Assembly: GCA_036521395.1 (NCBI GenBank)
Contig: DATDHV010000180.1
Span: 1,881 to 65,880 of the forward strand
DNA from: Steroidobacteraceae bacterium
Lineage (GTDB): Bacteria; Pseudomonadota; Gammaproteobacteria; Steroidobacterales; Steroidobacteraceae
Reading direction: 5' to 3'
DNA: 64,000 nt
Numbering within the stretch: the first letter of the stretch is position 1; each line of letters opens with the position of its first letter. Both the position numbers and the translations under genes were made by a program. The notes below the pieces were generated by a model. The model was not told the origin of the DNA and made no database searches. It worked only from the letters and a program-made list of their open reading frames with translations. Below are positions 1-17,315 of the stretch, piece after piece.

Positions 1-1228
1 CGGAATCGTTGATGCGAGTGATGGCATCGTCGAGCTGGGAGTAGCGCAGGACGGGGAGCACCGGACCGAACTGCTCGTCTCGCACGAGCCTCGCATCATC
101 CGGGATGTCGCGCACGATGGTGGGCCGCATGAAATATCCCGGTCGATCGAGTCGCACGCCGCCGGCGATGATCCGGCCGCGCGCGCGCGCCTCATCCACG
201 AAGCCCTGAACCCGCCCCAGCTGCGCCTGGTTCTGCAGTGGCCCGAATTCGGTTCCGACTTCCAGGCCATCGCCCACCACGGCCGCGTCGGCCAATCGCA
301 CCAGTATCTCGCAGAGTGCTTCATAGAGCGAGTCGGGCGCGTAGACGCGCTTGATGGCCAGGCAAACTTGCCCGCTATTGGCCATGGCACCCGCGAAGAT
401 CTTCGGCGCCACGGTTGCGATGTTCGCATCATCCATCACCAGCGCCGCATCGTTGCCGCCCAGTTCGAGCGTCAGGCGCTTGACCGTCCCCGCTGCGCTC
501 GCCATGACTTTGCGACCTGTCACAGTCGAACCCGTGAAGGCAACTTTCGCAACGTCTGGGTGACTTGTAAGCGCATCACCCAAATCGTTCAGATCCGTGA
601 TGACATTTGCCACGCCGGCGGGAAGCACTTCGGCGCAGATCTCCCCGAAGCGCAGCGTCGTCAAGGGGGTTGTCGGCGCTGGCTTGAATACGATGGTGTT
701 GCCTGCCAAAAGCGCCGGGGCAAATTTGCTCATAAGCAGAATGATGGGCAGGTTCCAAGGGGTAATGGCCGCTACGACGCCCAGCGCCGCTCGCTGCCGC
801 ACGATACGAACGTCGGCAGTGTTCTTGAGCACCGTTTCCGGCAGATCCATGGCGGCAAATGCCCGAATCATGCCGCTCGAACGCTCGATCTCCCGTCGCG
901 CCTGCAGGAGGGGTTTGCCCTGCTCCTGGGTCAGCAGGCGTCCCAGCTCTTCACTACGTGAAGCCAACTTCTCGGCCACCTGCAATAGCAGCGCGCGTCG
1001 TTCAGCCAGCGCACGTCTTGACCAGCTTGGAAAGGCCGCCTTGGCCGCGGCGACCGCGCGATTGAGCTGCGCGAGATCGGCACGCGGGCAGCGCGCCAGC
1101 AGGCGCTCGTTGGCAGGATTGATGACATCGAAGGCGTCCGCCCCGGTCACGAGATGTCCGTCGATGAGCAGTCTGAACTCCGCGCCGGCATCAGTGGGCG
1201 AACCGGCAAGGGTGGTTGCGGTACTCAT
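1..1228 (-). CDS. NAD(P)+-dependent aldehyde dehydrogenase (N-terminal ~409 aa; C-terminus runs off the left window edge)
   Basis: Absent from the ORF track because it has no in-window stop. Manual minus-strand translation from ATG 1228-1226 gives MSTATTLAGSPTDAGAEFRLLIDGHLVTGADAFDVINPANE... ALDH hallmarks are present: FTGSTVTGRKV, ELGGNDAALV and NSGQVCLAIKRVY (catalytic Cys). No in-frame stop down to position 1. ATGA overlap with the stop of the upstream MFS gene. Confidence 0.85.
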   Translation of the reverse strand, partial: MSTATTLAGSPTDAGAEFRLLIDGHLVTGADAFDVINPANERLLARCPRADLAQLNRAVAAAKAAFPSWSRRALAERRALLLQVAEKLASRSEELGRLLTQEQGKPLLQARREIERSSGMIRAFAAMDLPETVLKNTADVRIVRQRAALGVVAAITPWNLPIILLMSKFAPALLAGNTIVFKPAPTTPLTTLRFGEICAEVLPAGVANVITDLNDLGDALTSHPDVAKVAFTGSTVTGRKVMASAAGTVKRLTLELGGNDAALVMDDANIATVAPKIFAGAMANSGQVCLAIKRVYAPDSLYEALCEILVRLADAAVVGDGLEVGTEFGPLQNQAQLGRVQGFVDEARARGRIIAGGVRLDRPGYFMRPTIVRDIPDDARLVRDEQFGPVLPVLRYSQLDDAITRINDS

Positions 1229-2493
1229 ACGGTCTGAGGTATCCCGGAGTTTGCGCTCGTCTGCGGCTTCGCTCCCAGTGAGGCGGTCAGCACGACGGAC
1301 ACCAGCGTGGCGATGGCCGATGCGGACAACAGCGCAACGTAGGACGAGAACAGATCGTAGCTGTGGCCGGCGAAGTAAGATCCCAGCGCACCGCCGGCAT
1401 TGAAGAGCACGAACAGCGTGCCGTAGATTCGGCCCAGCGAGACACGACCGAAATAGTGCACGCAGAAGAAACCGAGCGCATCGAATTCGAGCCCGAGTCC
1501 TATACCGAGTGCGATCAGCATAAAGGCCGCTGCCGAAGCACCCGGAATAAGGGCCAGCCCAGCGAGCCCGAGAACCGGGAACACCAGCAAGCCTGCAGCG
1601 ATGAACGGTGGGTGGAATCTATCCAGCATATAGCCGGCGCCCAGTCGGGCGATGATGAGTGAGAACCCAAGCAGTGCGGCGAGATTGCCGGCATCGGCGC
1701 GAGCGACCCCTCGATCCACGAGCAGCGGGATGATCTGCGAGACCATACCGTTCAGGGAAATTCCGAGCAGCAGCGTTGCCGCGGCCAGTTTCCAGAACGT
1801 CGTGGTGCGCAGGGCCTGCATGAATCCGAATCCGCCGTCCGAACCATCGCCGACCAGCGCGTCGCCACGCGGGGCGGCGTCTCCGTCCGGATTCAGGCCG
1901 CGCTCTGAGGGACGATTTCGCACCACCAGGTACAGCGCCGGTAAGACGATGAAAATATTGATGAGCCCGAGCGCCACGAAGGCATCCCGCCAGCCGCTCG
2001 CTTGAATGATCCGGCTCACGAGCGGCGGCAGGATCAGGGCGCCGGCACCGGCTCCCGATATGCCAAGCGCCAGCGCAAGCCCCTTGCGCCGATCGAACCA
2101 GGCGACAATGAGTCGGACATAGCTGATCGACTGGGTACCCGCGCCGAGCGCCGAAAGCAGGATCAGACCGAAATAATAATGACGGATGTTCCGGTCCACG
2201 AAATGAAAGAGGCACAGGATGACGCCGAAGCAGAGTGTCGACAACAACAACGGCCGTCTGACCCCGACCTTGTCGATAAGGATTCCGACCAGCGGCAGCG
2301 CAATGATCGTGGTCACGTAGACACAGGTCATTCCCAGGGCGATGGAGCCCCGCGTCCACCCGAACTCTTCCGACAATGGCAGCGTGAAGGCGCTGAAGGC
2401 GTAAATCTGTGTGCCCACGAAACCGAAGCAGATGCCGAGAGCCGATACGGCGACGATCAGCCACCCGTAGAAAGGTCTGTTGGCCGCCCTCAT
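1225..2493 (-). CDS. MFS transporter
   Basis: 422-aa ORF that is hydrophobic throughout, with ~12 predicted helices. MFS-like loop motif GILIDKVGVRRPLL. Its stop overlaps the ALDH start by 4 bp. Confidence 0.85.
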   Translation of the reverse strand: MRAANRPFYGWLIVAVSALGICFGFVGTQIYAFSAFTLPLSEEFGWTRGSIALGMTCVYVTTIIALPLVGILIDKVGVRRPLLLSTLCFGVILCLFHFVDRNIRHYYFGLILLSALGAGTQSISYVRLIVAWFDRRKGLALALGISGAGAGALILPPLVSRIIQASGWRDAFVALGLINIFIVLPALYLVVRNRPSERGLNPDGDAAPRGDALVGDGSDGGFGFMQALRTTTFWKLAAATLLLGISLNGMVSQIIPLLVDRGVARADAGNLAALLGFSLIIARLGAGYMLDRFHPPFIAAGLLVFPVLGLAGLALIPGASAAAFMLIALGIGLGLEFDALGFFCVHYFGRVSLGRIYGTLFVLFNAGGALGSYFAGHSYDLFSSYVALLSASAIATLVSVVLTASLGAKPQTSANSGIPQTV

Positions 2494-2553
2494 GAGGATC
2501 TGCCTCCGCGTTCGATTGGCAGCGCGCGCAGGACGCGTGCCCCGAATGGATAT

Positions 2554-2577
2554 TAATGAGTATGCTGAGTATCACAT
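2554..2577 (-). promoter_or_regulatory. Conserved island box, copy 1 (core AGTATGCTGAGTAT at 2559-2572), upstream of MFS-ALDH and in the MarR divergent intergenic region
   Basis: One of four near-identical boxes (see 10088, 16171, 17161). Lies 66 bp upstream of the MFS start codon. A TTGACA hexamer on the minus strand (2592-2597) sits just upstream. Confidence 0.6.
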
Positions 2578-2727
2578 CCGCTGTTCGGATGTGTCAACGG
2601 CCGCACCGGTCGCGGACGAGTTCCGCATGATTTGTGCGGTGTACTAAGGTACGCTAGGCAGTGAGCCACGAGTGCAAGCGCATCGTTTCGCACCGGAGAC
2701 TAAATAATCAATAACGAATCTACAACC

Positions 2728-3189
2728 ATGGACCGCTCGCGAGTTATATGGAAGAGACCCGGCTTCCTTGTGCGCCGACTGCAGCAAATCTGGGTCGCCG
2801 TATTCATCAATGAATGCTCGGAGTTTGAAGTGACGCCGGTACAGTGGGGCGTACTGTCGATGGTGTCCGAGAACCCCGGGGTGGGCCAGATCGAGATTTC
2901 CGAGGAATTGGGATTGGATCGGTCGAACGTCGCCAACGTCGTCCATCGCCTTGCGAGGCGCGGGCTGCTCCGACAGAAACTCAGCCCCACCGATCAGCGG
3001 AAGAAGGACATCACCATCACCAAGGCGGGGGAGAAGGTGATGTCGCGCATCGAGGAATGTGCGGGTCGGGCGCAGCGGAAGATCCTCGCGCCATTGGATG
3101 ATCGGGAGCGCGAGATCTTCATGGAACTGCTCTCGCGTCTGGTCCGGGAGAACAACCATTTGGGGCGTGCGATCCTCCGGCTCAACTAA
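2728..3189 (+). CDS. MarR-family transcriptional regulator
   Basis: 153 aa. Winged-HTH region VTPVQWGVLSMVSENPGVGQIEISEELGLDRSNVANVVHRLARRGLL..DQRKKDITITKAGE is typical of MarR. Divergent from MFS-ALDH. Confidence 0.9.
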   Translation: MDRSRVIWKRPGFLVRRLQQIWVAVFINECSEFEVTPVQWGVLSMVSENPGVGQIEISEELGLDRSNVANVVHRLARRGLLRQKLSPTDQRKKDITITKAGEKVMSRIEECAGRAQRKILAPLDDREREIFMELLSRLVRENNHLGRAILRLN

Positions 3190-3202: not shown

Positions 3203-4342
3203 TCACTCCAGTACCGCGTTCAATTCGCGCGGCGTCGATAGCAGCGGCTCCGGCCCCTTCGGCGTAACAATGACGGTATCGCCGAGCACGAAGTAGCCGG
3301 CCAGCGGCGTGAAGGTGTTCGGATGAACCACGAGCACCGCGTTCTCTTCCAGCACCGTGTGCACTCCCTCGATAATGTGGACCTCATCGAGGTAGAGTCC
3401 CATGCAGTGCCCTCGCACACGCGTGTAGTCCGATGTGCAGTATTCACCGTAGCCGTGGCGCCTGAAGACATCGTTCTCGGCCTTGGCCACTTCGTGCGCG
3501 GTGACACCCGGTTTGATGGCCTCGAGTCCGGCGACGACGGCTTCCTCGAATAATGCAAACGACTCCCGATGCCTATCAGTCGAAGGGCCGACGACAGCGG
3601 TGCGGCAGATCTGCGTCCAATAGCCCTTGAATTGAGGTGTGAGCTCCGTTCGCACGAGATCCCCTCGCTCGAGCCGACGATCGGACGGCGGCGTCATTCC
3701 TCGCACCTCGTCGCCGCCGGAGGCGATCAACATGAAGTTGTCTTCCGCTCCCTCCGCTCGCAGGCGTGCTTCGACGTCGGCGACGATTTCGAATTCCCGC
3801 ACGCCTGGCCGGCAGGCCGCCTGAAAGGCCTTCCAGGACAAATCGCAGATCTCACCCGCACGGCGCAGCCGCGCGAGTTCGAATTCGCTCTTGACCAGTC
3901 GGATGCCGTCCATCAGATCGGTGGCAGTCGCGAATTCGATCTGAGGCAGGAGCGATTGCAGCTGCCGCCAGACAGTCACTGGCACGAACTCGGCGCCTGC
4001 AATACCGACTCGGCCGCGCGCGAAATCCTCGCGCACGCGATCCGCGAGTCCTGATACATCTGGAAACACCACTTCCTGAACATCATCGACAAACCCCGTC
4101 TGCCGCATCGCCTGCGCGTCGAGCGGCGAGCAGGCGAACGCGCTGACTGCCCCCGATAAGGGCACATAGGCTAGCGCTGCGCTCGAGTCGAGCGCCGCGT
4201 CGGTGACATAGCGGACGTTCTCACGTCGCCACGCCGGGGCGAAGGCGATCAGCGCATCAAAGCCTGCGGAACCGATGGCCTTGCGAATCCGGGCAGTGCG
4301 CCAGGCAGCTTCCGATTTTGGGCTCCGCGCCGCGGCCGTCAT
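3203..4342 (-). CDS. M24-family (creatinase/prolidase-like pita-bread fold) hydrolase, metal ligands apparently substituted
   Basis: ORF 3203..4363. Start moved to ATG 4342, which forms an ATGA overlap with the upstream stop, as at every other junction in this operon. Creatinase/prolidase N-domain plus a C-terminal pita-bread region (GDLVRTELTPQFKGYWTQICRT, GHCMGL, VLVVHPNTF, LGDTVIVT). Confidence 0.8.
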   Translation of the reverse strand: MTAAARSPKSEAAWRTARIRKAIGSAGFDALIAFAPAWRRENVRYVTDAALDSSAALAYVPLSGAVSAFACSPLDAQAMRQTGFVDDVQEVVFPDVSGLADRVREDFARGRVGIAGAEFVPVTVWRQLQSLLPQIEFATATDLMDGIRLVKSEFELARLRRAGEICDLSWKAFQAACRPGVREFEIVADVEARLRAEGAEDNFMLIASGGDEVRGMTPPSDRRLERGDLVRTELTPQFKGYWTQICRTAVVGPSTDRHRESFALFEEAVVAGLEAIKPGVTAHEVAKAENDVFRRHGYGEYCTSDYTRVRGHCMGLYLDEVHIIEGVHTVLEENAVLVVHPNTFTPLAGYFVLGDTVIVTPKGPEPLLSTPRELNAVLE

Positions 4343-5385
4343 GAGGCCAGCTCCTTCCGGCACAGCGGCACCGCGCCGGATGGGGAGATGCTCACGGTAT
4401 CTGTGGCAATGACGGGACCATCGTCACCACAGAGTGTCAACTGAATGCAGACCACCTCGTTAACCTGTAGGGGCCGATTTGAGTCGTCCGGGCTGCGATA
4501 GAGCCCGCGCGTTTCGAGATCCAGATATGGGTAGCACGCCAGCCGCGCGCGTCCCGATCCTCCAAATCGTCCGGTAGTGCGGCGCGCCAGACTCGTCTCG
4601 TTTACTCCTGGCCGCGCCGCCGCAAGTAAGTCCCGCAATGCCGTCTCCGCCAGAGTTGCCGACGGCCCGTTGCGCGACAGCGACCGCCGCACCCAGACAT
4701 CGCGGTACTGGCCGATTGCATCGATCCATTCGGTCGAATCCCCCAAGCCGCCGGCGGCCACGGTGGCGTCCTGGAAGCCATCGCGTCGCAATGCACGCAC
4801 GGCGATGGCGGCGCACTCCTCTGCACTGGTGCCGCCAGACCAGGCCAGCCTCAGCGCGTCAGCCAGCCGTCCGGCACCACTTTCAAGCAGGCGCCGCGTC
4901 TCGACCGAAGGCACGAGGCGGGCGGCGCGTACGGCAGGCCCCAGATCTTCGAGCAGCATGTCTGGCAAGGCCTCCCTGATTTGCTCGACGAGTTGGTGGG
5001 GCCACCATGGCAAGTCGATAAGCGCCAGCGATCCCCTGCATTGGCCCGGCTGATCCTGCAGATATTTGCTGACACTTTCGGCCAGCTGGGGACCGCTGCG
5101 GATGTCCTGGAGCGTCGAGGTCTGACGCATCCACGTCGTTACGCGCTTGGAGAGCTTGGTAATGAGCGCGGGAGGTCCGTCCCTAGGGACGGCCAGTACG
5201 GCCTCGCTCCAATAGAGGCAGAGATTGGTCAGATAGTTGATATCACCCGAGCGCGATACGTCGCCATACACCAGGGCGACGTGAGCGCTCGATCGCCGTA
5301 GCTGCGCTTGCAGCGCCTCTATACGGGCAGCGTAGACCTCGCGCGGTATCTCGCGTTGGTCGAGCGTGACCAATCCTCGCTTCAT
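4339..5385 (-). CDS. Divergent M24/creatinase-like protein (degenerate paralogue)
   Basis: 348-aa ORF. The N-terminal region resembles the creatinase/prolidase N-domain (ARIEALQAQLRRSSAHVALVYGD...NYLTN). The C-terminal half is only weakly pita-bread-like. 4-bp overlaps on both sides. Confidence 0.6.
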   Translation of the reverse strand: MKRGLVTLDQREIPREVYAARIEALQAQLRRSSAHVALVYGDVSRSGDINYLTNLCLYWSEAVLAVPRDGPPALITKLSKRVTTWMRQTSTLQDIRSGPQLAESVSKYLQDQPGQCRGSLALIDLPWWPHQLVEQIREALPDMLLEDLGPAVRAARLVPSVETRRLLESGAGRLADALRLAWSGGTSAEECAAIAVRALRRDGFQDATVAAGGLGDSTEWIDAIGQYRDVWVRRSLSRNGPSATLAETALRDLLAAARPGVNETSLARRTTGRFGGSGRARLACYPYLDLETRGLYRSPDDSNRPLQVNEVVCIQLTLCGDDGPVIATDTVSISPSGAVPLCRKELAS

Positions 5386-5885
5386 GATTGCTCCACCAGC
5401 CGCGAGCCGATCGCAATCACGCCACCGGCGCGCAGCATCTCGAGGAGGAAGGGATCGGCGGGGGGCCCTCGATGCGTGCGAGCCGTGCGTTCGACCTTCA
5501 CCTCGCCCGCGGGCACATCCACTTCGAGCACGTCACCTTCGATAACGTTCTGGCGGATGCCTGGAATTTCGGTGATCGGCAGTCCCACTTCGAAGGCGTT
5601 GCGATAGAATGTGCGGGCAAAGCTCTCCGCCACGATGCACGAAATGCCCGTTGCCTGCAGCGCCCGCACCGCAATAGCTCGACCGGAGGACTGTCCGAAA
5701 TGCTTTCCAGCCACGAGAACATCCCCACGCTGAACATTGCCCGCGAAACCGGGGTTGGCGTCTTCCAGTACGTGGCGCGCAATTTCGTCAATCGGCAGGA
5801 AGAATCGGTGCGACTTGATGATCTGGTCGGTGGGTACGTAGTCCCCGACGATCCAGCACGCTCCTTTGAACCTGAAATCCGTCAT
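5382..5885 (-). CDS. Aconitase-family small subunit (LeuD-like), degenerate motif
   Basis: 167 aa with the LeuD-like swivel domain. The canonical NFGCGSSREHA motif reads HFGQSSGRAIA. 4-bp overlaps with both neighbours. Confidence 0.75.
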   Translation of the reverse strand: MTDFRFKGACWIVGDYVPTDQIIKSHRFFLPIDEIARHVLEDANPGFAGNVQRGDVLVAGKHFGQSSGRAIAVRALQATGISCIVAESFARTFYRNAFEVGLPITEIPGIRQNVIEGDVLEVDVPAGEVKVERTARTHRGPPADPFLLEMLRAGGVIAIGSRLVEQS

Positions 5886-7144
5886 GACAGGTCCCGAGCG
5901 TCCGTGAGCGAGCCGCGCAATGCCGATGCCGCCACGGTCAGCGCGGAGGCCAGGAACATGCTGGCCAAGGCGCTACCGTTGCGACCCGGAAAGTTACGCG
6001 AGTGGGTCGAGATCATGCTCTCACCGGCGGCCATGGCGCCCATGTTGATGCTCTGATTGGAACCGGTGCTTGGCGGGAACCAGAGCGCCCCGGCCTCGTG
6101 CAGTTGCTGAACGAGACCCTCCTGAAGTGCCTGCGCGAAGACGGGCCTGCTTGACGGGACGATGTTGAAGCGGACATTCGGGTGTACACGCTGACCCGCG
6201 AGCACCCGCGCAGCCATGCGAATGTCCTCTATGCGGCCACCCCCGTGTCCGCCTATCTCCGCCCATTGAATCCTCGTTCCGGCTAACGCGCGCACGGGCT
6301 TGACGTTGCCCACGCTCGGCGGGCAGGCGACCTGCGGTTCGATTTCCGACACATCGAATCTCCAGGTGGCTTCGGGACGTCGCTGGGGTTGCGGCGTAAT
6401 CTCCAACCCCTCCCACGCCTGCATCGATTTTGCGGCGCGCGCGAACTCGAACAGCTTCTCATCCGGCTCGATGTACCCGCACTTCGCGCCCACATCCACG
6501 GTGATTAGCGGGAACAGCCAACGGTCGAAAAGGCTCAAGCCTTCGATGAAGGGCCCGCTGAACTCCAGCGCCTTGTAGACGGCTCCGTCCTCCCCGATCT
6601 GAGCCACAAGCCACAAGGCGATATCGCGCGCCGAAGTGCCGTCGCGCAATGCGCCAGACAGCTCGATACGAACCGTGGCCGGCACGCGGAACCAGGCTTT
6701 GCCGTGCGGAAACACCATGCCGGCGTGGCAATCGTTTCCAACTGCCACCGCAAACGCACCCAGCGTGCCGTGCACTGGCGTGTGGCTGTCGGATCCGACA
6801 ACTACCATCCCCGGGCCAATGAAGCCGCCTCGGGCGACGGCATTGTGGATATTGCCGCTACCGCAGTTGAGCAATGTGATGCCGTATTTCTCCGCCCAAT
6901 CGCGATCGGATTTGAGCACCTCGGCCTCGCGCTCTCGGGGCGGCGAGAAAATATGATCGAACACCATGATCACGCGATCGGGATGCTTGAGCGGCTTGTT
7001 GACCTTCTCTTCGTAGACACGCGAGGTCATGTACCCGCTCAGATCGTGCATGATCATTCGATCCACCTCGGCAATGACTATATCGCCGGGCGAGACGCTG
7101 CCGCGTCCGCTCGCGCGCGCGAGAATGCTCTCGATCAGGTTCAC
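5882..7144 (-). CDS. Aconitase-family large subunit (LeuC-like) lacking the three Fe-S cluster cysteines
   Basis: 420 aa. Retains VVGSDSHTP and STHSRNFPGRNGS. GSC(A/T)N is replaced by GGHGG, and PGCGAC by PSTGSN. Confidence 0.8.
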   Translation of the reverse strand: MNLIESILARASGRGSVSPGDIVIAEVDRMIMHDLSGYMTSRVYEEKVNKPLKHPDRVIMVFDHIFSPPREREAEVLKSDRDWAEKYGITLLNCGSGNIHNAVARGGFIGPGMVVVGSDSHTPVHGTLGAFAVAVGNDCHAGMVFPHGKAWFRVPATVRIELSGALRDGTSARDIALWLVAQIGEDGAVYKALEFSGPFIEGLSLFDRWLFPLITVDVGAKCGYIEPDEKLFEFARAAKSMQAWEGLEITPQPQRRPEATWRFDVSEIEPQVACPPSVGNVKPVRALAGTRIQWAEIGGHGGGRIEDIRMAARVLAGQRVHPNVRFNIVPSSRPVFAQALQEGLVQQLHEAGALWFPPSTGSNQSINMGAMAAGESMISTHSRNFPGRNGSALASMFLASALTVAASALRGSLTDARDLS

Positions 7145-8412: not shown

Positions 8413-8927
8413 CGCCGCGCCTCGGATGCGAGCTTGCGCGCGACGTAGGGAATCAATCCGCCTGCATTGAGGATGCGCGTCAGATTTTCGGGGTAGGGCG
8501 GAAATGAGAAACGTCCGCCCAGCGTCTCGATCATGCCCGCCGCCACATCGATAAATACCTCGTCACCGTCGGCGATATGAGCCTCGGCATCGGCCGACTG
8601 CAGGGCGGCGAGTCCAGTATTGATAGCGTTGCGGAAGAATACGCGAGCGAATGATTGTGCCACCACAGCCTGAATGCCCGCACCGACCAGGCAGCTGGCG
8701 GCCTGCTCGCGGGCGCTACCGCAACCGAAATTCCTGCCGGCCACTATCACTTTGGCCGCCCGAAAGCGGTCCTGAAACGCGCGCCCGAGCGGCTCAAAGG
8801 CGTGCCCGGCGAGTTCAACCGGATCGATGCTCGTCAGATATCGGCCCGGAATGATCACATCGCTGTTGACGTGATCGCCGAGCTTCACGCATCGACCGCC
8901 GATGACCCATGAGCTGCGTTCGCTCAT
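8409..8927 (-). CDS. Aconitase-family hydro-lyase small subunit (LeuD/HacB-like)
   Basis: 172 aa with motif VIVAGRNFGCGSAREQA and FARVFFRNAINTGL. Confidence 0.9.
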   Translation of the reverse strand: MSERSSWVIGGRCVKLGDHVNSDVIIPGRYLTSIDPVELAGHAFEPLGRAFQDRFRAAKVIVAGRNFGCGSAREQAASCLVGAGIQAVVAQSFARVFFRNAINTGLAALQSADAEAHIADGDEVFIDVAAGMIETLGGRFSFPPYPENLTRILNAGGLIPYVARKLASEARR

Positions 8928-10087: not shown

Positions 10088-10109
10088 AAGAAGTGTACTG
10101 AGCATTACC
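10088..10109 (-). promoter_or_regulatory. Conserved island box, copy 2 (core AGTGTACTGAGCAT at 10092-10105), upstream of the OCD-like operon
   Basis: 86 bp upstream of the start at 10006. Shares AGT...CTGAG.A and the 3' flank TACC with the copy at 16171. Confidence 0.55.
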
Positions 10110-10230: not shown

Positions 10231-10929
10231 TCACTGCTGATCCGCGTGATACTGATTGAGCTCGATGACCTGGCCGTCCGGATCGACGACGTAGATCGAG
10301 TCCGGCTTGCCGTCATCAGCGCGTAGCGGCGTGTTTATGAATCGGATACCGGCCGCCTTCAGCTTTACCAACAGCCCGGCGAGATCCGTCACCCGATAGG
10401 CGTTGTAGCCCTTGCCCTCGAAATTGCCGGTGGGATTTTTGTAGATGCTCTTGTCGAGAGGAGTGCCCGTCAACTCCCAGACCTCGATCCAGGGTACGTG
10501 TGACCCGATCGTCGGTCCGCCCGGCATGTTTAGAAGGAGATGCTTGTAGTGCCCCGTCTTGAGGCCTAGCAGTTGGTCCATAGCTGGGTTCTCGGCTCGA
10601 TCGGTGATGTCGTGCGCTACTGTAAATCCCAGTAGATCCACGTAGAAGTGCCGGCACTTAACGATGTCCGCGGTGAAGATGTGCGTATGATCCAGGCCGA
10701 GCACGCCCGCCGGGCTCGGCGCGAGGGTCGCGGGATGATCGACCGTCGGCACGTTGAAGTGCGGCAGGTGGTACGAGCTCGCAGCCGGCGGCGCACCCGC
10801 CGTGCCGCCCGATTGTTCCTGACCGGCGCCTTGCACCACGGCGCCGGTCGAAAGCGCGGTCAGGAGAATCATCCCGTGCCAGGCCGCTCTGCGCGCTCGC
10901 GCCTTTCCTGGCAAGTCGTTGCTTCGCAT
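10231..10929 (-). CDS. Secreted VOC (glyoxalase/bleomycin-resistance/dioxygenase) family protein
   Basis: 232 aa. N-terminal signal-like segment (AWHGMILLTALSTGAVVQGAG), a low-complexity linker, then a VOC module (GLDHTHIFTADIVKCRHFYVDLLGF ... YVVDPDGQVIEL). Confidence 0.75.
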   Translation of the reverse strand: MRSNDLPGKARARRAAWHGMILLTALSTGAVVQGAGQEQSGGTAGAPPAASSYHLPHFNVPTVDHPATLAPSPAGVLGLDHTHIFTADIVKCRHFYVDLLGFTVAHDITDRAENPAMDQLLGLKTGHYKHLLLNMPGGPTIGSHVPWIEVWELTGTPLDKSIYKNPTGNFEGKGYNAYRVTDLAGLLVKLKAAGIRFINTPLRADDGKPDSIYVVDPDGQVIELNQYHADQQ

Positions 10930-10961: not shown

Positions 10962-11639
10962 TTAATCGCTGTCCTTTCCCCAGTAGTTGTTCAGCTCGAT
11001 AACCTGCCCGTCCGGATCGATCATGTAGACCGCGCCGGGAAGATGATGGACGGGATTGATGTTTGGCTCGGCTACGAACTTGACCCCCTGAACCTTTAGA
11101 CGCGTGATGATCTCCGCCAGATTCTTCACCCGATAGGCGTTGTAGCCCTTGCCCTGAAAGTTGCCCGTGGGATTGTTATAGATACTCTTATCAAGCGGGA
11201 CTCCGGTAATCTCCCAAAGCTCGATCTGCGGAACGTGCGTACCATAGGAAGGTCCGCCTGGCATGTTCAGGAGCGCCGATTTGTAATGGGCGTTCTTAAG
11301 ACCCAGCAGATTGTCCATGCGCGGATTCACCGGTGTGTCCTCGACGGGCGTGGCTTGCGTAAAGCCGAGCAGGTCGACGTAGAAGTGAATGGATCGATTG
11401 ATGTCGGCCGTAAAGACGTGTGTGTGCTCGAGTCCGTAAAAACCCTTCGCATTCGCATGTACGGGAGCCGGATGATCGACGTGCGGCAGATTCTGTCCGG
11501 CATCCGAATAGGCGTCGGGGGGCGGTGCGGCGGTCTGGGCGGTAGCGCTGGCCGACATAGCGGTGGCGACTCCGCTGAGGGCCGCACCAATCAAAGCTCG
11601 AGCGAAGCGACTCTTCCCGGTCAGATGCATGGCGTTCAT
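10962..11639 (-). CDS. Secreted VOC family protein (tandem paralogue of 10231..10929)
   Basis: 225 aa. Signal-like N-terminus (ALIGAALSGVATAMSASATAQ). Collinear similarity to its neighbour (GLEHTHVFTADINRSIHFYVDLLGF, NPTGNFQGKGYNAYRV, YMIDPDGQVIEL). Confidence 0.75.
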   Translation of the reverse strand: MNAMHLTGKSRFARALIGAALSGVATAMSASATAQTAAPPPDAYSDAGQNLPHVDHPAPVHANAKGFYGLEHTHVFTADINRSIHFYVDLLGFTQATPVEDTPVNPRMDNLLGLKNAHYKSALLNMPGGPSYGTHVPQIELWEITGVPLDKSIYNNPTGNFQGKGYNAYRVKNLAEIITRLKVQGVKFVAEPNINPVHHLPGAVYMIDPDGQVIELNNYWGKDSD

Positions 11640-11677: not shown

Positions 11678-13792
11678 TCAGTTCCAATGGATATTCGAGG
11701 GCTGGTTGTGGGCGCCGCGCGAGACGTACTCGTAAAGCGCCCCAACATCGTCCTTGCTGAGTTCGCCCGAGAAGCTCGGCATACCGAGCGCTTCGAGGGC
11801 GCCCCCCAGCACGATGGACCGGAAGCCGTCGGGTCCTATCTCATGCACACGCTCCAGGTTGGGCAGATTTGGAGCGGAACCGGATCTACCATGACAGGAG
11901 GCGCAGTGCCCGTACAACCGTGCGCCGCGTATCATCAGCTCCGGATCGGCCGGCGCGAACTTGCTCAAATCCACGACCGGCGGGCCCTTCGGCACAGGGC
12001 GCTTCGGGGGTGTCGGAACCTCGCCGCCATCGAGCTTGAACACCAGCATGCGGCCCTCGTTCTCGTAGATCCTCGCCGCGGAGTCATCCGCCATCCGCCA
12101 GCTGAGAGCACCGCCGTAGCCCGCGGCAACCGCGACATATTGTGTTCCGCCCACCGAGTACGTCATCGGCCCCGCAATGGCGGCGCTGCCCGTGAACAGC
12201 CGCTTGAGCTCCGCGCCCGTGCGCGCATCGTAGGCATTGAAATAGCCATCCTGTGTCGGTTGAAACACAAGGTCGCCGGCCGTGGCGAGAACGGATCCGT
12301 TCCAAGTGTCGCTGTGTTTTACCTGCCAACGAACTACGTGAGCAATTGGATCCCAGGCGCGCAGAAACCCTCCGATGTCGACCGTCGGCTGACCCTTGGT
12401 CATCTCGGCGAGCTGCTTGGGCGAAGCGATCAGATGCCAGATGTAGGAGTGCGCGGGATTCATCGAGAATGACGTCGGATTATCCTGTGCCGGGATATAG
12501 ACGAGCCCGGTCTTCGGGCTGTACGCCTGCGGAAACCAGTCGTGCGCACCGTTGCCATTCGGAAAGATCAATCGATCGTGTTTGCTGTAATCGGCATAAT
12601 CGGTTACTACCGGGCGCCCGGTCTTCATGTCGATACCGCTGGCCCAGTTCACCGCACCGTACTGTTGCGCCGAGAGTAATTCACCGGTCTTGCGATCCAG
12701 GACGTAGAAAAACCCGTCCTTCGGCGCCTGCATCGCCACCTGGCGCACACGACCATTGATCCGAACATCCGCCAGCGTGATGGGACTGTCCGCGTCGTAG
12801 TCCCAGCGGTCGCCTGGCACTTCCTGGTAGTGCCAGGCCACACGCCCCGTGTCCGCATGCAGCGCCATGATGGACGTGATGTATAGGTCGTCGGTCTTGT
12901 CCTCCGGTCGCTGCTGCTTCCACGGACCGGTGTTCCCAGTGCCGAAATAGAGCAGATTCAGCTTAGGATCGAAGGACATCATCCCCCAGACGCTGCCGCC
13001 GCCTTGATCAGTCCATACGTCATCGGCAGGCCAGGTTCTTGCCGCCGCGGCTTCATCGGCATTCTCGAACGGTCCGTTAGGCCCCTTGGGCACTACGAAG
13101 AATCGCCAGACTTGCGCGCCGCTTCGGGCATCGTAGGCAGTCACATAGGCGCGAACTCCTGAATCGCCGCCGCTGTTGCCGAGGATCACCTTGCCATTTG
13201 TCGCTAGTACGGGACCCGTCACACTGTATGGGCGATCGTGATCGATGATGGTGTCGACATTCCAGTCGACTTTGCCGGAGCCGGCATCAAGAGCCACCAG
13301 GTGCCCATCGAGCGTGGCGACATAGACGCGGCCCTTCCACACCGCAAGGCCCCGATTGACGATGTCGCAGCACACGTGCCTGACGACGCTGGATCGATTG
13401 ACTGGCTGGTAGGACCAAAGTGTGTGCCCGGTCACCGCATCGAATGCGAACACCTGGCCCCAGGTACTGCTAACATACATGACACCGCCGACGACGATCG
13501 GGGTAGCTTCCAGACCACGATCGGTATTCATGTCGGCCTGCCAAGCGAAGCCTAGTCGCCCCACCGTCTGCGTGTTGATCTGCGCCAACGGCGAGTAGCG
13601 GCGCTCCGAATAATCCCCACCACTCGATGGCCATTGCGATCCATCCTTTGCAAAAGCCGCCACCGTGGCCGCATCGACATTGGCGGCAATCGGGGGCGAC
13701 GCCTCGGCCGGCAGCGGCGACAGCAGAGCCATCGCCAGCCCAGCCAGCACGGGGCAGAGCATTCGTAGATTCACCGCCAACTCCGGGTACAC
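11678..13792 (-). CDS. PQQ-dependent quinohemoprotein dehydrogenase (alcohol dehydrogenase type II-like)
   Basis: 704 aa. Signal peptide, a beta-propeller with the vicinal Cys pair (VRHVCCDIVNRG), and a C-terminal cytochrome c domain with CASCH heme motif. Confidence 0.9.
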   Translation of the reverse strand: MYPELAVNLRMLCPVLAGLAMALLSPLPAEASPPIAANVDAATVAAFAKDGSQWPSSGGDYSERRYSPLAQINTQTVGRLGFAWQADMNTDRGLEATPIVVGGVMYVSSTWGQVFAFDAVTGHTLWSYQPVNRSSVVRHVCCDIVNRGLAVWKGRVYVATLDGHLVALDAGSGKVDWNVDTIIDHDRPYSVTGPVLATNGKVILGNSGGDSGVRAYVTAYDARSGAQVWRFFVVPKGPNGPFENADEAAAARTWPADDVWTDQGGGSVWGMMSFDPKLNLLYFGTGNTGPWKQQRPEDKTDDLYITSIMALHADTGRVAWHYQEVPGDRWDYDADSPITLADVRINGRVRQVAMQAPKDGFFYVLDRKTGELLSAQQYGAVNWASGIDMKTGRPVVTDYADYSKHDRLIFPNGNGAHDWFPQAYSPKTGLVYIPAQDNPTSFSMNPAHSYIWHLIASPKQLAEMTKGQPTVDIGGFLRAWDPIAHVVRWQVKHSDTWNGSVLATAGDLVFQPTQDGYFNAYDARTGAELKRLFTGSAAIAGPMTYSVGGTQYVAVAAGYGGALSWRMADDSAARIYENEGRMLVFKLDGGEVPTPPKRPVPKGPPVVDLSKFAPADPELMIRGARLYGHCASCHGRSGSAPNLPNLERVHEIGPDGFRSIVLGGALEALGMPSFSGELSKDDVGALYEYVSRGAHNQPSNIHWN

Positions 13793-13845: not shown

Positions 13846-16098
13846 TCACTCGGTCGTATAGGCAACGGAGACGCCATAGGTGCGCGGATCGCCATGGAAT
13901 GAGACAGCCGCGCCCGCGGTCAGGAACTCATTGCCGACGGTATAGGTAATGTAGTGGCGGTCCCCAAGATTATGGCCCCAGAGCGAGAAGGTCCAGTGGC
14001 CGTCGCTGCTGCGCCAAGGAAGATTCCCATCGATCACGCCGTACCCGCCAGCGCCGTATCTGCTCGGGTTCAGGTCCTCATGCGGATCGAACCACACATG
14101 CGAGCGATACGTTATGCGGACCTGCGGTTCGAAAGTGCTGCCACCCGAAAGCAGGAATTTATACTGTGCGGACGAGTCAGTCGTGAACTTGGGCGCATTG
14201 GTGAACTCGTGCCCCGCAAAGCTCAGGAACGGCAGGAACTGGAACTGGTCGTAGCGCGTATTCAACAGTCCCGCTGACACCGAGAACGTCCACCCGGCAA
14301 TATCGCGCGCGTCGAGCTCGATTTCCGCTCCCTTCGATTTGCCACTCGCGGCATTCTTGGTGAGCGCCGTTGTGTCGCCCGGGACCAAGGGGTTTGGCAC
14401 CAGTACCAGGGTCTGGAGATCTGTGAGGTCGTTGTAAAAGACGGCCAGATTCGCAATCAAATGCTGATTGAAGGACGTAGTCTTCAGGCCCACTTCGTAG
14501 GTGTTGTCCCGCTCAGGATTATAGGGCTCCAGCGTCGAATCGGCGCTGAACCCACCGCTCTTGAATCCGCGGCTCGCACTGGCGTAGGCGAGCAGTCCCT
14601 TGATCGGACGCCATTCCCCTACGATGCGTCCTGTTGGCGCCGACCAGTTATCCGACTTGCTGAGATCGTATTGGGGCAGGAAAGCAGGACCGGCGTCGGG
14701 GAACTGGATCGAGCCAAATCCGTGCGCCTGCTTGACCTCATGCGTGTAACGCGCCCCAACCCCTAGAGTGAATGTGTCCGTTATGGCCCAGCGCACGTCT
14801 CCAAACACCGCGTAGTTATAGGATATCTGCGAGACACCATCGTTAGTATTGGACGCCAAGCCCTGTCCGGCAAAGATGGGGTCCGTGAACGCCGGGTTCT
14901 GCGCCTGATAGACATTGAGATCTTCGTGGTAGAAATAGAGGCCGGTAACCCAGTCGAACGGCCCGCTCTTCGATGCCAGCCGAAACTCCTGACTGTATTC
15001 GTTGACATTATTCGGCGACTGGTCGATGGCAATCATCTGTGGCGAGCCATCGAAATCGATATAGTCGCGGTAGTTCGCGTGATCAAACCCACTGATGGTG
15101 GTAAAGGTCATTCCCAGAACATTGATGTTTCCTGTCAGATATGCGCCCTTCGCATTGATGACTTCCTGCGGAGCGAACGACAGTGACACCTCATTCCAGG
15201 GCAGGCCCGCGCCCTTATATCCCGTGAAGGTATTGACATTCAGGTCTGAGTAGACGACCGGGGTGGTACTGTTGCTACCGTTGCCATGCAAATTGAGCGT
15301 CCAGCTCATGTCGGAGCTAGGCTTCCACACCGCCAGAGCGCGTGCACCCCAGTTGCTGACGTCATCGAGGTGGTGGGTTCCTGGCGCATCCTGGTTGATG
15401 TTGGTGACCCAGCCGTCGCGATTTCGCATCACGCCAGACACACGCACCGCCAGCGTGTCGGAAATAGGAACCGAAACGCCGCCATCGAAATCGCGCTCAT
15501 TGAAGCGTCCATAGGTGACCGAACCGTCGGCTTCAAACTGGTCTCCGGGCTTGCGCGAATACAAATCGATGGCGCCGGCGTTAGTGTTGCGCCCGAAGAG
15601 GGTGCCCTGCGGACCGCGCAGAACCTCGACGCGTTCCTGGTCGAACATCTGTCCGAGCTGAGCACTACGCGCGCCAACGTAGACGTCGTCGTAGTAGACG
15701 CCAACGGGTGAAACTGCGGTTGGTCCGAAAACCTGACCGATGCTGATGCCCCGGATCGAGATGTTCGGGTTACCCATCGCATAAGGCGTCACGAAGTTCA
15801 TATTCGGCGTGGAATCGGCGAGTTTGCCGATGTCTGTGACACCCCGGCTCTCGAGATCCTGCTGTGTGAGGACTTCCATGGACAGCGAGACATCCTGCAC
15901 CGATTGCTCACGCCGCTGAGCTGTGACTAGAACCTCCTGAAGCTCGGAGTCGCCTTCGCTTGCGGCCGCGAGCGTTGGCGCAATCGATTGATCGGCGGCG
16001 GATGCGCCGGTTGACCAGAGAATGATTGCAACAAGCGCCGAAACCGTCGAAGCGCGGCCTGTGATCTGACTTCGGCCAGGTAATTCAAACTCAAACAT
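13846..16098 (-). CDS. TonB-dependent outer-membrane receptor
   Basis: 750 aa. Signal peptide, plug region (EVLVTAQRREQSVQDVSLSMEVLT, RVEVLRGPQGTLFGRNT), and a long beta-barrel rich in alternating aromatic residues. Confidence 0.9.
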   Translation of the reverse strand: MFEFELPGRSQITGRASTVSALVAIILWSTGASAADQSIAPTLAAASEGDSELQEVLVTAQRREQSVQDVSLSMEVLTQQDLESRGVTDIGKLADSTPNMNFVTPYAMGNPNISIRGISIGQVFGPTAVSPVGVYYDDVYVGARSAQLGQMFDQERVEVLRGPQGTLFGRNTNAGAIDLYSRKPGDQFEADGSVTYGRFNERDFDGGVSVPISDTLAVRVSGVMRNRDGWVTNINQDAPGTHHLDDVSNWGARALAVWKPSSDMSWTLNLHGNGSNSTTPVVYSDLNVNTFTGYKGAGLPWNEVSLSFAPQEVINAKGAYLTGNINVLGMTFTTISGFDHANYRDYIDFDGSPQMIAIDQSPNNVNEYSQEFRLASKSGPFDWVTGLYFYHEDLNVYQAQNPAFTDPIFAGQGLASNTNDGVSQISYNYAVFGDVRWAITDTFTLGVGARYTHEVKQAHGFGSIQFPDAGPAFLPQYDLSKSDNWSAPTGRIVGEWRPIKGLLAYASASRGFKSGGFSADSTLEPYNPERDNTYEVGLKTTSFNQHLIANLAVFYNDLTDLQTLVLVPNPLVPGDTTALTKNAASGKSKGAEIELDARDIAGWTFSVSAGLLNTRYDQFQFLPFLSFAGHEFTNAPKFTTDSSAQYKFLLSGGSTFEPQVRITYRSHVWFDPHEDLNPSRYGAGGYGVIDGNLPWRSSDGHWTFSLWGHNLGDRHYITYTVGNEFLTAGAAVSFHGDPRTYGVSVAYTTE

Positions 16099-16170
16099 GT
16101 GACCCCCCTATTCACTTAGATCCTCGCCGGACTCAGTTTGAATCCGACGGCTGCAGGAATTCGACGACAT

Positions 16171-16192
16171 ATGCAGTATACTGAGTAATACC
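16171..16192 (-). promoter_or_regulatory. Conserved island box, copy 3 (core AGTATACTGAGTAA at 16175-16188), upstream of the TonB receptor operon
   Basis: 77 bp upstream of the start at 16098. On the minus strand, TTGACA (16214-16219), 18 nt, then TATGGT directly precede the box. Confidence 0.6.
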
Positions 16193-16303
16193 ATAGCAGC
16201 GCGCCTGACGCAGTGTCAAACTCATCGACGCACTATTTCCCCCGTATAAACGCAGCGCGCGCGGCGCGGTCAGGCGAAGAGGCTACGATACAAAATAAAT
16301 TCC

Positions 16304-17098
16304 TCATAGCGGCGCATCCGGATTGATGAGCGTGCGCCACATATGCGCCACCGGGCCGTTGTCGTTGCCGAGTCCCTCGGCCGGCTGTTTGAAATGACGA
16401 CCGACGATGTCGGTGAACGTTTCGAATGCCACGACCGCCTTGGGGTCGAAGGCATAGAGGTCACTGGCAGTCACCTCACGAGCATCACCGTACCAGCGAT
16501 GCTTGCGCACGAATTGATAGGTCTGTTCAAGACGCGGATCTGGGACATAGTCATCGCCGTAAATCCGTCGGTAGATATCCGGGTAGCTATATCCGACCTC
16601 GGCGTCTGCGAAGAAGCGCAAGGGCTGGTGATACTTGATCGCGAATGCCGTCCGTTCGGACACGTACGGCTCCATGAGCTGCGCGCCCCAATATCCATGG
16701 TCTGCGCACATGAACTCCTGCGCGATATCGTGCAGCAGGCAGGCAAGCACGATCTCCTCGTCTGCGCCTCTCTCGAGCGCTTTGTTGGCGCTCTGCAGGC
16801 AATGATTGCCGGTGTTCGCCAAGCGAAGCCGGAAGAAATCGGCCAGTTTCGGAGCCACAGGCATGGGCGGTAAGCGCGCTACGAGGCCGCCCTCGGCGCG
16901 GCTCCAGAACATGCGGCCAACCCCGCGCCTGTACGGACGGGTGGTGATCTGCGCATCGAGTTCGGCAACCGTTGGGTAACGCGCGGAAGGTGCGGTAAGC
17001 GCCGCCGAGCCAGCCGGCAGTGCAGCACTCACATTCGGCTCGGATGTGACCTTTTCAGTGTGCAACTGCCGATCCCCCAGCCCATGCTCCTCGTCCAT
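16304..17098 (-). CDS. HD-domain metalloprotein (phosphohydrolase or HD-type oxygenase; function unknown)
   Basis: ORF track gives 16304..17140 with a GTG start. ATG 17098 is preferred because it is preceded by GAGGAG with a 6-nt spacer. His/Asp pattern: NHCLQSA, LLHDIAQ, ADHGYWG, IKYHQ, plus later Asp residues. Confidence 0.75.
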   Translation of the reverse strand: MDEEHGLGDRQLHTEKVTSEPNVSAALPAGSAALTAPSARYPTVAELDAQITTRPYRRGVGRMFWSRAEGGLVARLPPMPVAPKLADFFRLRLANTGNHCLQSANKALERGADEEIVLACLLHDIAQEFMCADHGYWGAQLMEPYVSERTAFAIKYHQPLRFFADAEVGYSYPDIYRRIYGDDYVPDPRLEQTYQFVRKHRWYGDAREVTASDLYAFDPKAVVAFETFTDIVGRHFKQPAEGLGNDNGPVAHMWRTLINPDAPL

Positions 17099-17160
17099 CG
17101 TTATCTCCTCAACGTTCGCAGGCGGAACAGTATGAGGCACCCTTTAAGGTGCAGATATTA

Positions 17161-17183
17161 TAATCAGTACGCTGAGTATCAAG
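17161..17183 (-). promoter_or_regulatory. Conserved island box, copy 4 (core AGTACGCTGAGTAT at 17166-17179), upstream of the HD-domain gene
   Basis: 68 bp upstream of ATG 17098. Flanked on the minus strand by TTGACT (17182-17187) and TATAAT-like sequence. Nearly identical to copy 1 over ~20 nt (TGATACTCAGCrTACTsATTA on the minus strand). Confidence 0.6.
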
Positions 17184-17315
17184 TCAAGAGCAACAGATTG
17201 AGAGAGATCGGCGTCCAACCACATCACGCTATGAGACGGGTTTCTGCCAAAATTGACCTGAAATTCCCGGTTAACCGCCACGGCTGACAGTGGCATGCTA
17301 GGGGGAGCGCCCTGG

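Follow-up and report, generated by a model that had tools for sequence, protein, structure and literature searches.

The first 17 kb of a 64,000-nucleotide stretch of a Steroidobacteraceae genome (contig DATDHV010000180.1 of assembly GCA_036521395.1, positions 1,881 to 65,880; hereafter, the window) appear to form a horizontally acquired accessory island, in which two gene modules, each conserved on its own, have been joined; the region is not one ancestral system. Module B encodes an enzyme of the ornithine cyclodeaminase (OCD)/mu-crystallin family, two aconitase-family pairs (LeuC/LeuD and LeuC′/LeuD′), one of them devoid of the ligands of the Fe−S cluster, and two diverged M24 proteins (M24 and M24′). 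Module A encodes an HD-like protein, a TonB-dependent receptor (TBDR), a quinohemoprotein dehydrogenase dependent on pyrroloquinoline quinone (PQQ) and two secreted VOC proteins. A similar 16-mer, a candidate operator, precedes four transcription units drawn from both modules. The reading that we favor, with a probability of roughly 0.5, is that of a composite island in which the two modules are held under one MarR repressor, module B serving the catabolism of an N-containing aromatic-type carboxylate and module A acting upstream of B. A catabolic gene cluster is in itself a known kind of system; what is new is the conserved core of module B and its two non-canonical enzymes. The seven core genes (OCD-LeuD-LeuC-LeuC′-LeuD′-M24′-M24, 3203-10006) all overlap or abut in the window, where they are accompanied by marR, a carboxylate transporter of the major facilitator superfamily (MFS) and an aldehyde dehydrogenase (ALDH) gene:

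1..1228, minus strand: ALDH (PF00171, E = 2e−120), 3′ end cut by the window edge
1225..2493, minus strand: MFS transporter of the monocarboxylate/oxalate-formate type (PF07690, E = 7e−38)
2728..3189, plus strand: marR, PcaV-like repressor of the MarR family (PF12802/PF01047)
3203..4363, minus strand: M24, catalytic-type subunit with Creatinase_N and M24 fold and a non-canonical site (PF00557, 5.5e−33, and PF01321); translation may in fact begin at the ATG at 4342
4339..5385, minus strand: M24′, diverged full-length M24 paralog with PF01321 (Creatinase_N) as sole recognizable domain
5382..5885, minus strand: LeuD′, small partner of LeuC′ (PF00694 and TIGR02087)
5882..7144, minus strand: LeuC′, aconitase-family large subunit without Fe−S cysteine ligands (PF00330, 4e−65)
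7141..8412, minus strand: LeuC, canonical [4Fe−4S]-type large subunit (PF00330, 3.5e−92; passes NF001614, 496 > 385)
8409..8927, minus strand: LeuD, small subunit of LeuC (TIGR02087, 2.6e−47)
8924..10006, minus strand: OCD/mu-crystallin family NAD(P) imine/amine oxidoreductase or cyclodeaminase (PF02423, 1.7e−39)

The two modules were told apart by their distribution. Using homologs of M24′, the most distinctive protein, we fetched 73 species-level genome loci (here, like the other loci and contigs, numbered with the prefix L) and sought the window proteins within ±10 kb of M24′. The core genes recur almost throughout: M24 and M24′ in 71 loci each, OCD in 67, LeuC′ in 65, LeuD′ and LeuC in 63 each and LeuD in 62. 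Homologs of the PQQ dehydrogenase, the VOC proteins, the HD-like protein and guaA, the gene that follows the island, were found in none of the 73 loci within that distance, and a TBDR homolog, 25% identical, was found in one. A preliminary description, made from the window sequence alone, had taken the 17 kb for a single outside-to-inside catabolic system; as a conserved neighborhood the whole gene set does not recur in these loci. Carriers of module B span four phyla (Gamma- and Alphaproteobacteria, Actinomycetota, Bacillota and Dormiibacterota). They include, among Actinomycetota, Amycolatopsis, Pseudonocardia, Streptomyces, Actinomadura, Saccharopolyspora, Geodermatophilus, Actinoplanes, Parafrigoribacterium, Solirubrobacterales and Acidimicrobiales, and outside that phylum Steroidobacteraceae, Nevskiaceae, Hyphococcus, Emcibacter, Hyphomicrobiales, Alicyclobacillus and Dormiibacterota. 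OCD and LeuC are 64−88% identical across these phyla, the six best-conserved core proteins 53−88%, and the diverged M24′ 33−59%. A further 61 loci from metagenomes agreed with this distribution, the full core being present in about 11 long contigs. ALDH, found in 4 of the 73 loci, was rejected as a fixed member of the module, as was a thiamine diphosphate-dependent enzyme, which occurs in 2−3 loci in non-orthologous forms (23−39% identity). In Parafrigoribacterium (L005, 2918-5296) the ABC transporter of the module is preceded, just upstream, by a third LeuC/LeuD pair, which has a separate MarR and is 37−38% identical to LeuC and LeuD′ of the window.

Module A occupies 10231-17140:

10231..10929, minus strand: VOC1, secreted VOC/glyoxalase-fold protein (PF00903; signal-peptide-like N-terminus)
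10962..11639, minus strand: VOC2, secreted paralog of VOC1 (PF00903; signal-peptide-like N-terminus)
11678..13792, minus strand: type II quinohemoprotein PQQ dehydrogenase (TIGR03075, 560.5 > 480)
13846..16098, minus strand: TBDR, with plug and barrel domains
16304..17140, minus strand: HD-like protein (weak PF01966 match)

This module occurs without module B in three independent contigs (Sphingobium-type; L081-L083), where it is accompanied by an SBF-family transporter and a LysR regulator and where the HD-like protein is 52% identical to that of the window. In two of these contigs a DUF8021 protein, absent from the window island, lies beside the module (L081, 8944-9852; L082, 1-599). Only Steroidobacteraceae have modules A and B side by side: they adjoin in the window, in the metagenome contig L080 and in L006, a second metagenome-assembled genome (MAG) of the family, whose contig ends with a VOC1 ortholog, 90% identical, immediately upstream of OCD.

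The link between the modules is the shared 16-mer TRATACTCAGYRTACT, which was first spotted by eye in the intergenic regions and then tested statistically:

2559..2574, minus strand: O1, TGATACTCAGCATACT (read as MFS is transcribed), between the divergent MFS and marR genes, overlapping a −10-like hexamer downstream of TTGACA
10092..10107, minus strand: O2, TAATGCTCAGTACACT, ~85 bp upstream of the OCD start
16175..16190, minus strand: O3, TATTACTCAGTATACT, upstream of TBDR, directly after a TTGACA-18-TATGGT promoter-like site
17166..17181, minus strand: O4, TGATACTCAGCGTACT, between −35- and −10-like hexamers upstream of the HD-like gene

When searched with up to 3 mismatches, AGTATGCTGAGTATCA has three matches in the 64 kb (2559, 16175 and 17166) against 0.11 expected, and none of 100 shuffled sequences reached three. 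These matches all lie upstream of first genes, and the copy at 10092, upstream of OCD, has 4 mismatches. Outside the window the motif is found upstream of OCD and MFS in L001, L002, L006, L008 and L028; the individual OCD-upstream sites listed are those of L001, L002, L006, L028 and L080. In the Emcibacter MAG (L028) it also precedes a non-orthologous TBDR. No copy was found in core loci without MarR (L012, L014), in the stand-alone module A loci or in 1.24 Mb of actinomycete loci, so that presence of the motif tracks presence of MarR, including in distant Proteobacteria (L001, L002, L008, L028). This co-occurrence suggests that MarR binds the motif. The best match of MarR among known structures is PcaV (4fht, E = 8.7e−20; next best 9e−14), a protocatechuate-responsive repressor. 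Since the one motif precedes the HD-like, TBDR, OCD and MFS genes, periplasmic and cytoplasmic genes appear to be co-regulated, and in this lineage, with four units sharing the candidate operator, part of the single-system idea survives. The stand-alone module A has neither motif nor MarR, and its LysR and SBF genes are exactly the two missing from the island; we therefore infer that module A in the island probably exchanged its LysR/SBF pair for the MarR/MFS control of module B. If so, the island would illustrate how simply gaining the operator of an existing regulon can bring a periplasmic uptake and oxidation module into it.

The island stands out from its surroundings in composition and context. 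GC content is 0.58−0.64 over 1-17 kb and 0.65−0.72 in the rest of the window, and GC at third codon positions (GC3) is 0.735 ± 0.026 in the 15 island genes (range 0.70−0.78) versus 0.853 ± 0.033 in the 33 other genes (Mann−Whitney p = 1e−7). L080 is 96% identical at the DNA level to window positions 6229-17187 and diverges beyond 17187; where the window has guaA, it has another MFS gene, a PIN/MazE pair, a PepSY protein and a Tn3 transposase fragment. Because the homology stops there, the right edge of the island is placed at ~17187, 129 bp from the guaA stop codon at 17316, beyond which guaA and guaB follow. The left edge lies outside the window; in the relative L006 the module stops right after ALDH. 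No tRNA, integrase, transposase or other mobility gene was found at the border visible in the window. The composition shift and the different context in L080 mark 1-17187 as probably acquired horizontally.

The preliminary description had argued for horizontal acquisition from spot counts of GC, and neither the GC nor the per-gene GC3 profile is flat. Its gene list also proved accurate, every named family being recovered by Pfam and NCBIfam and marR being the sole plus-strand gene of the island; ALDH, MFS, M24, M24′, LeuD′, LeuC′, LeuC, LeuD, OCD, VOC1, VOC2, the PQQ dehydrogenase, TBDR and the HD-like gene all lie on the minus strand. Single-strand orientation was nevertheless rejected as a hallmark of the island, because nearly all genes as far as ~33 kb are oriented likewise, and the border, said to fall exactly at the guaA 3′ end, adjoins that gene but lies 129 bp short of it. 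The flank of the L080 copy (1-3740) contains the Tn3-family transposase fragment, the PepSY_TM protein, the PIN/MazE toxin-antitoxin pair and the extra MFS gene, of the sugar-transporter type; these hint at the transfer vehicle. Elsewhere in the window, the single tRNA gene, tRNA-Leu CAA (41582-41666), overlaps a called open reading frame (ORF; 41630-42286) with a GC3 of 0.75; apart from this one and the last ORF of the window (63143-64000, GC3 0.75), no ORF outside the island has a GC3 like that of the island genes.

Among the core enzymes, the two LeuC paralogs differ where aconitases bind their cluster. LeuC has all three cluster cysteines (C303, C363 and C366), conserved in 64−65 of 65 orthologs, and its best structural match is an isopropylmalate/citramalate isomerase (4kp1/4nqy, MJ0499, ~3e−104). 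The loop of LeuD that governs specificity reads GRYL[V/T]SI, lacking the Arg of homoaconitase, and its GCGSAREQA motif is invariant. LeuC′ aligns with LeuC over the full length, but the cysteines are replaced by H300, T360 and N363, a substitution found in 64 of 65 genomic orthologs and in 119 of 120 database clusters; the preliminary description, correct in counting two aconitase-family heterodimers, had overlooked this loss. Residues associated with acid−base catalysis and binding of malate-type substrates (D63-H64, D119-S120-H121, R383-N384 and R388) are invariant in LeuC′, as is the FGQSSGRAIA motif of LeuD′, in which the specificity loop is variable. LeuC′ scores below the NCBIfam subfamily cut-off that LeuC passes (366 vs 385). 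Neither paralog reaches the equivalog cut-offs: against 610.65 for TIGR02083 and 550 for HacA, LeuC scores 379 and 394.7, and LeuC′ 284 and 299.9. With its substrate-binding and acid−base residues kept, LeuC′ offers a test of whether the aconitase fold can catalyze without an Fe−S cluster.

The M24 pair is altered in a comparable way. The five dinuclear-metal ligands of Pyrococcus furiosus prolidase, D209, D220, H284, E313 and E327, correspond to E/Q/H/H/G in M24, in 72 of 72 orthologs, so that the D, D, H, E, E set is not present; the score against the PepQ equivalog is 110.7, far from the cut-off of 630. The closest relatives of known structure are nevertheless Xaa-Pro dipeptidases/prolidases (E = 4e−32), with creatinase at 6e−17. 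M24′ is 23% identical to M24 over 376 residues, has D/−/E/Q/T at the five positions, and its invariant residues are mostly in the N-terminal Creatinase_N domain. This concentration suggests that a creatinase-like active site is completed across the interface of an M24/M24′ heterodimer. The conservation of the altered sites in LeuC′ and M24 marks them as selected alternatives and not as products of decay, and the invariant E/Q/H/H/G set of M24 poses for the pita-bread fold a question parallel to that posed by LeuC′. The pair also has a second genomic context, with hydantoinase A/B, a NitT/TauT-type ABC importer, Amidohydro_2, LysR, a GFO/IDH/MocA oxidoreductase and MmgE/PrpD. Such loci (L027, L049, L097, L103-L105, L109, L115, L117, L120 and L141) have neither OCD nor LeuCD, and L130 has both gene sets; M24 of the pair-only loci has the same E/Q/H/H/G site. 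Both contexts combine a C−N hydrolase-like pair with an NAD(P) oxidoreductase and an enzyme of a tricarboxylate (de)hydratase family.

Evidence on the substrate comes from the surroundings of the core in other genomes. An aromatic-acid/H+ symporter of the MFS (TIGR00895, 2e−74; PcaK, 1e−42) is part of the core operon in 40 loci, and the actinomycete operon begins with marR and an MFS gene of this symporter family; about 25 loci carry instead an ABC importer of the SsuA/TauA type that depends on a substrate-binding protein (SBP). Four proteobacterial lineages have TBDR genes next to the core; the one in Hyphococcus stands behind a gene for a FecR anti-sigma factor. In 19−20 loci of 4−5 genera the core adjoins genes for a PcaR-like IclR regulator and for a VanA-like Rieske oxygenase with its reductase. 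In the Emcibacter MAG (L028, 1-20752) one side of the module holds ligK, ligU, a gene for a hydrolase like that of 2-pyrone-4,6-dicarboxylate (PDC), ligA/ligB and, judged by eye, a possible GalB-type hydratase, and the other side a GntR regulator, folD, purU and a GCV_T-type (LigM/DesA-like) demethylase; the module sits here in the middle of a lignin-aromatic island. In Hyphococcus it is followed by a GFO/IDH/MocA oxidoreductase with a PF19858 OxRdtase_C domain, which we take to mark the LigC-type oxidoreductase family, and MmgE/PrpD and hydantoinase A/B genes are also near the module in some loci. Enzymes of the OCD family carry out redox reactions of alpha-imino/amino acids and LeuCD enzymes act on substituted malates and maleates, while the lig intermediates PDC, oxalomesaconate and 4-carboxy-4-hydroxy-2-oxoadipate (CHA) are tricarboxylates resembling oxo-homocitrate and homoaconitate. 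Transporters, regulators and neighbors, combined with this family chemistry, therefore point to an N-containing aromatic-type acid: the substrate is probably a (poly)carboxylate that contains N and is aromatic or pseudo-aromatic, or the product of its ring opening. We also considered module B as a replacement of the lower lig pathway, with OCD standing for LigC, M24 for LigI, LeuC′D′ for LigU and LeuCD for LigJ. This was judged unlikely, as Emcibacter has ligK, ligU and the PDC-hydrolase-like and GalB-like genes alongside the module, and OCD enzymes are known only from C−N chemistry.

On the reading that we favor, module B would be a widespread cytoplasmic pathway that processes an imported anionic substrate. 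A creatinase-like M24/M24′ heterodimer without a dinuclear metal site, its active site formed by the catalytic domain of M24 and the conserved N-domain of M24′, would cleave a C−N bond of an amide, amidine or lactam. The OCD-family NAD(P) enzyme would oxidize or reduce an alpha-imino/amino acid function, and the canonical Fe−S LeuCD would hydrate or dehydrate a substituted malate/maleate unit. The cluster-less LeuC′D′ may carry out a cofactor-independent half-reaction (isomerization, epimerization or elimination) on the same type of unit, in the way PrpD and aconitase share the work in the methylcitrate cycle, and ALDH would oxidize an aldehyde product; the order of the steps is likewise tentative. 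Upstream, the TBDR of module A would take up a precursor, which the periplasmic quinohemoprotein dehydrogenase and the secreted VOC pair would modify, and the HD-type protein, probably an oxygenase, would act in the cytoplasm, with module A thus presumably feeding module B.

A bolder version, which we regard as possible but speculative, makes LeuC′D′ an active Fe−S-independent branch of the aconitases and M24/M24′ a new heterodimeric pita-bread hydrolase free of the dinuclear metal. Together with OCD these would make up a hitherto unrecognized route that needs no oxygenase, is common in Actinomycetota of soil and in certain Proteobacteria, and acts on an abundant yet orphan N-containing aromatic/pseudo-aromatic polycarboxylate; candidate substrates would include pyridine or pyrrole di-/tricarboxylates from spores, from melanin or from lignin ring-fission products and ammonia.

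Several observations weigh against the composite catabolic island. The candidate operator lacks the palindromic form usual among the targets of MarR proteins: no inverted repeat turned up when the intergenic regions were searched, and the shared element is direct-repeat-like. Modules A and B adjoin in one family only, in three closely related sequences, so that their coupling rests on the shared motif alone, and the stand-alone loci show that A does not need B. The window MFS is of the monocarboxylate/oxalate-formate type and not of the aromatic-acid type, the aromatic-pathway genes nearby are under regulators of their own and may be there only because catabolic genes tend to cluster, no core enzyme reaches an equivalog cut-off, and LeuC′D′ may be no enzyme at all but a partner without catalytic function.

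A rival explanation makes A and B functionally unrelated passengers of one mobile island and the motif a lineage-specific promoter element or the remnant of a promoter duplication. Each module is complete and independent elsewhere, their adjacency is confined to close relatives, and the motif, a direct repeat, overlaps promoter hexamers. We nevertheless consider this explanation doubtful, because the motif follows marR across distant Proteobacteria and is absent where MarR is absent, because it precedes an unrelated TBDR in Emcibacter, and because what the island lacks relative to stand-alone module A is precisely its LysR and SBF genes. More remote is the idea that module B is a biosynthetic or self-resistance cluster making and exporting a small acid. 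MarR and MFS pairs are common in export and resistance and many carriers are antibiotic-producing actinomycetes, but the SBP-dependent ABC systems of about 25 loci and the TonB receptors of Proteobacteria are import devices and the conserved core includes no committed synthase, ligase or tailoring enzyme; we regard this reading as very improbable.

Two further alternatives retain catabolism and change the substrate. The preliminary description had proposed a secondary-amine or imino polycarboxylate, such as an opine, an aminopolycarboxylate metallophore or an alkaloid-derived acid. In its full form, the whole island would degrade an aliphatic compound of the opine or aminopolycarboxylate-metallophore type, taken up by the TBDR and split oxidatively by OCD in the manner of SbnB, with LeuCD acting on the hydroxy-acid arms. 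OCD-family enzymes do act on secondary amines and imines (the SbnB, BhcD and delta1-pyrroline-2-carboxylate (Pyr2C) reductase models match, all below cut-off), both LeuC paralogs keep the malate-type dicarboxylate-binding residues, TBDRs flank the core in four lineages, once behind the FecR-type factor, and MmgE/PrpD genes, to whose family iminodisuccinate epimerase belongs, occur nearby. These features are not specific to such a substrate, however. The symporter family of 40 loci and the PcaV-/PcaR-like regulators point to aromatic-acid-type chemistry, no opine oxidase, octopine-dehydrogenase-type or C−N lyase genes were seen in any locus, and most carriers are Gram-positive soil actinomycetes, which have no outer membrane; the proposal thus seems unlikely. 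We give about as little credence to a cyclic imino-acid pathway, akin to cis-3-hydroxy-L-proline catabolism, in which M24 would release a hydroxylated imino acid, an aconitase-family dehydratase convert it to a cyclic imine and OCD reduce the imine, LeuC′D′ being an epimerase. Such a pathway would suit the Xaa-Pro dipeptidases as closest structures of M24 (E = 4e−32), the full-length alignment of OCD with 6t3e and the precedent, reportedly, of AcnX with an OCD-type reductase. However, the aconitase members are of the LeuCD type with intact dicarboxylate-binding residues and not AcnX (weak PF04412 match, 0.0019), M24 is without the dinuclear metal center needed for peptide hydrolysis, and no proline racemase/epimerase or hydroxyproline genes lie nearby in the inspected loci.

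The remaining genes add details to the composite catabolic island. The ATG of ALDH, at 1228, overlaps the MFS stop codon by 4 bp; the best NCBIfam match of the protein is aminobutyraldehyde dehydrogenase, below cut-off, and its ortholog in L006, 77% identical, is the last gene of the module there. MFS, the best NCBIfam match of which is the L-lactate MFS transporter SfMCT (6e−41, below cut-off), has orthologs after the core in L001, L002, L006, L008, L012 and L028. OCD passes PF02423 (136 > 24) and falls below the cut-off of every NCBIfam equivalog (OCD, EutC, BhcD, Pyr2C reductase, alanine dehydrogenase and SbnB; best alanine dehydrogenase, 144 vs 409); its best structural matches are the archaeal alanine dehydrogenase 1omo and, over the full length, the delta1-pyrroline-2-carboxylate reductase 6t3e. 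In module A, VOC proteins come in pairs at every locus; the VOC1 family is rare (40 database proteins at E ≤ 1e−10), and VOC1 of L080 is 95% identical to that of the window. The TBDR is shared with L080 at 96% identity, whereas those of L028 and L081 reach only ~26%. The HD-like protein has H113, H137-D138, H148, H171, D227 and D232 invariant in four orthologs; its family profile reaches only TmpB (3.8e−4) and PhnZ (8e−4) among known structures, both weakly, and it scores 23 vs 214.6 in NCBIfam. It is possibly an HD-domain mixed-valent diiron oxygenase of the PhnZ/TmpB/MIOX kind. The PQQ dehydrogenase matches alcohol dehydrogenase (ADH) IIB best (1kv9, 2e−173) and has a C-terminal haem motif CASCH at 630 and a vicinal CC at 141. 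At residues 331-333 the window and L080 have W-D-Y-D, where three Ca-type quinohemoprotein structures and the stand-alone orthologs (L081-L083) have W-D-Y/F-T. D-x-D is the lanthanide-binding signature of XoxF/ExaF/PedH-type enzymes. Because the Asp two residues after the catalytic Asp matches this signature, the enzyme may be a lanthanide-dependent type II quinohemoprotein.

The earlier remark that the genes form no recognizable textbook pathway has held: no core enzyme was assigned to a characterized family member, and no description of the gene combination or of a LeuC without cysteines was found in the full-text literature, though absence from the searched collection proves little. Public databases name the core proteins generically, as isopropylmalate dehydratase, aminopeptidase P and ornithine cyclodeaminase, and because of this annotation automated reconstructions mis-assign the core to leucine biosynthesis and peptide turnover. 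Knowing the substrate would close a gap in the picture of how carbon and nitrogen are turned over in soil and would yield new enzymes.

Comparison with known systems places module B beside several pathways. In the cis-3-hydroxy-L-proline pathway, the AcnX dehydratase is said to yield an imine that is reduced by the OCD-family delta1-pyrroline-2-carboxylate reductase. Like module B, that pathway groups genes for an aconitase-superfamily dehydratase and for an OCD/mu-crystallin reductase. Module B differs from it in the duplicated heterodimeric LeuCD-type enzymes, one without Fe−S ligands, in the obligatory M24/M24′ pair and in having no hydroxyproline genes. Catabolism of ectoine and hydroxyectoine (DoeA/EutD, EutC, EutB) likewise combines a non-peptidase, C−N-opening M24 protein with an OCD-family enzyme and a dehydratase. 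However, M24 scores 61.6 vs 613 bits for TIGR02993, so that it is not assigned to DoeA/EutD, and OCD scores 83.9 vs 471.65 for EutC; module B lacks the DoeB/EutE deacetylase, the aminotransferase and the pyridoxal phosphate-dependent dehydratase, and has transporters of other types.

For the aconitase members, the nearest systems are isopropylmalate/citramalate isomerase and homoaconitase (LeuCD/HacAB), with which LeuC/LeuD share the three cysteines, the catalytic residues and the subfamily score. Unlike them, LeuCD of module B belongs to a regulated uptake operon, has no synthase or dehydrogenase partner and is paired with a cysteine-less paralog. The methylcitrate cycle, in which the cofactor-free dehydratase PrpD and rehydration by an Fe−S aconitase share a hydroxyl shift on a tricarboxylate, provides a conceptual precedent, and some variant loci have PrpD-family genes in place of the LeuCD pairs or beside them. 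In module B, however, the presumed cofactor-free partner LeuC′D′ is itself of the aconitase family. Creatinase, a metal-free M24 amidinohydrolase in which the N-domain of one subunit completes the active site of the other, resembles M24 in combining the M24 fold with Creatinase_N and in having no dinuclear metal site; it differs in being homodimeric and in having other residues at the former metal positions, and M24 is less similar to it than to prolidases.

As in the PcaV-regulated protocatechuate and lig 4,5-cleavage systems, the regulator is closest to PcaV, and in two Alphaproteobacteria the module lies in or beside lig genes. It differs from the lig pathway in that the window has no ring-cleavage genes, the lig set of Emcibacter appears complete without module B, and the N-handling enzymes have no role in that pathway. 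Finally, the module A dehydrogenase shares with type II quinohemoprotein ADHs (ADH IIB, ADH IIG and qhEDH) the PQQ propeller, the C-terminal haem c domain and the vicinal Cys pair, and differs from them in belonging to a fixed module that also encodes a secreted VOC pair, a TBDR and an HD-like protein and, in the Steroidobacteraceae copies, in having Asp in place of Thr two residues after the catalytic Asp.

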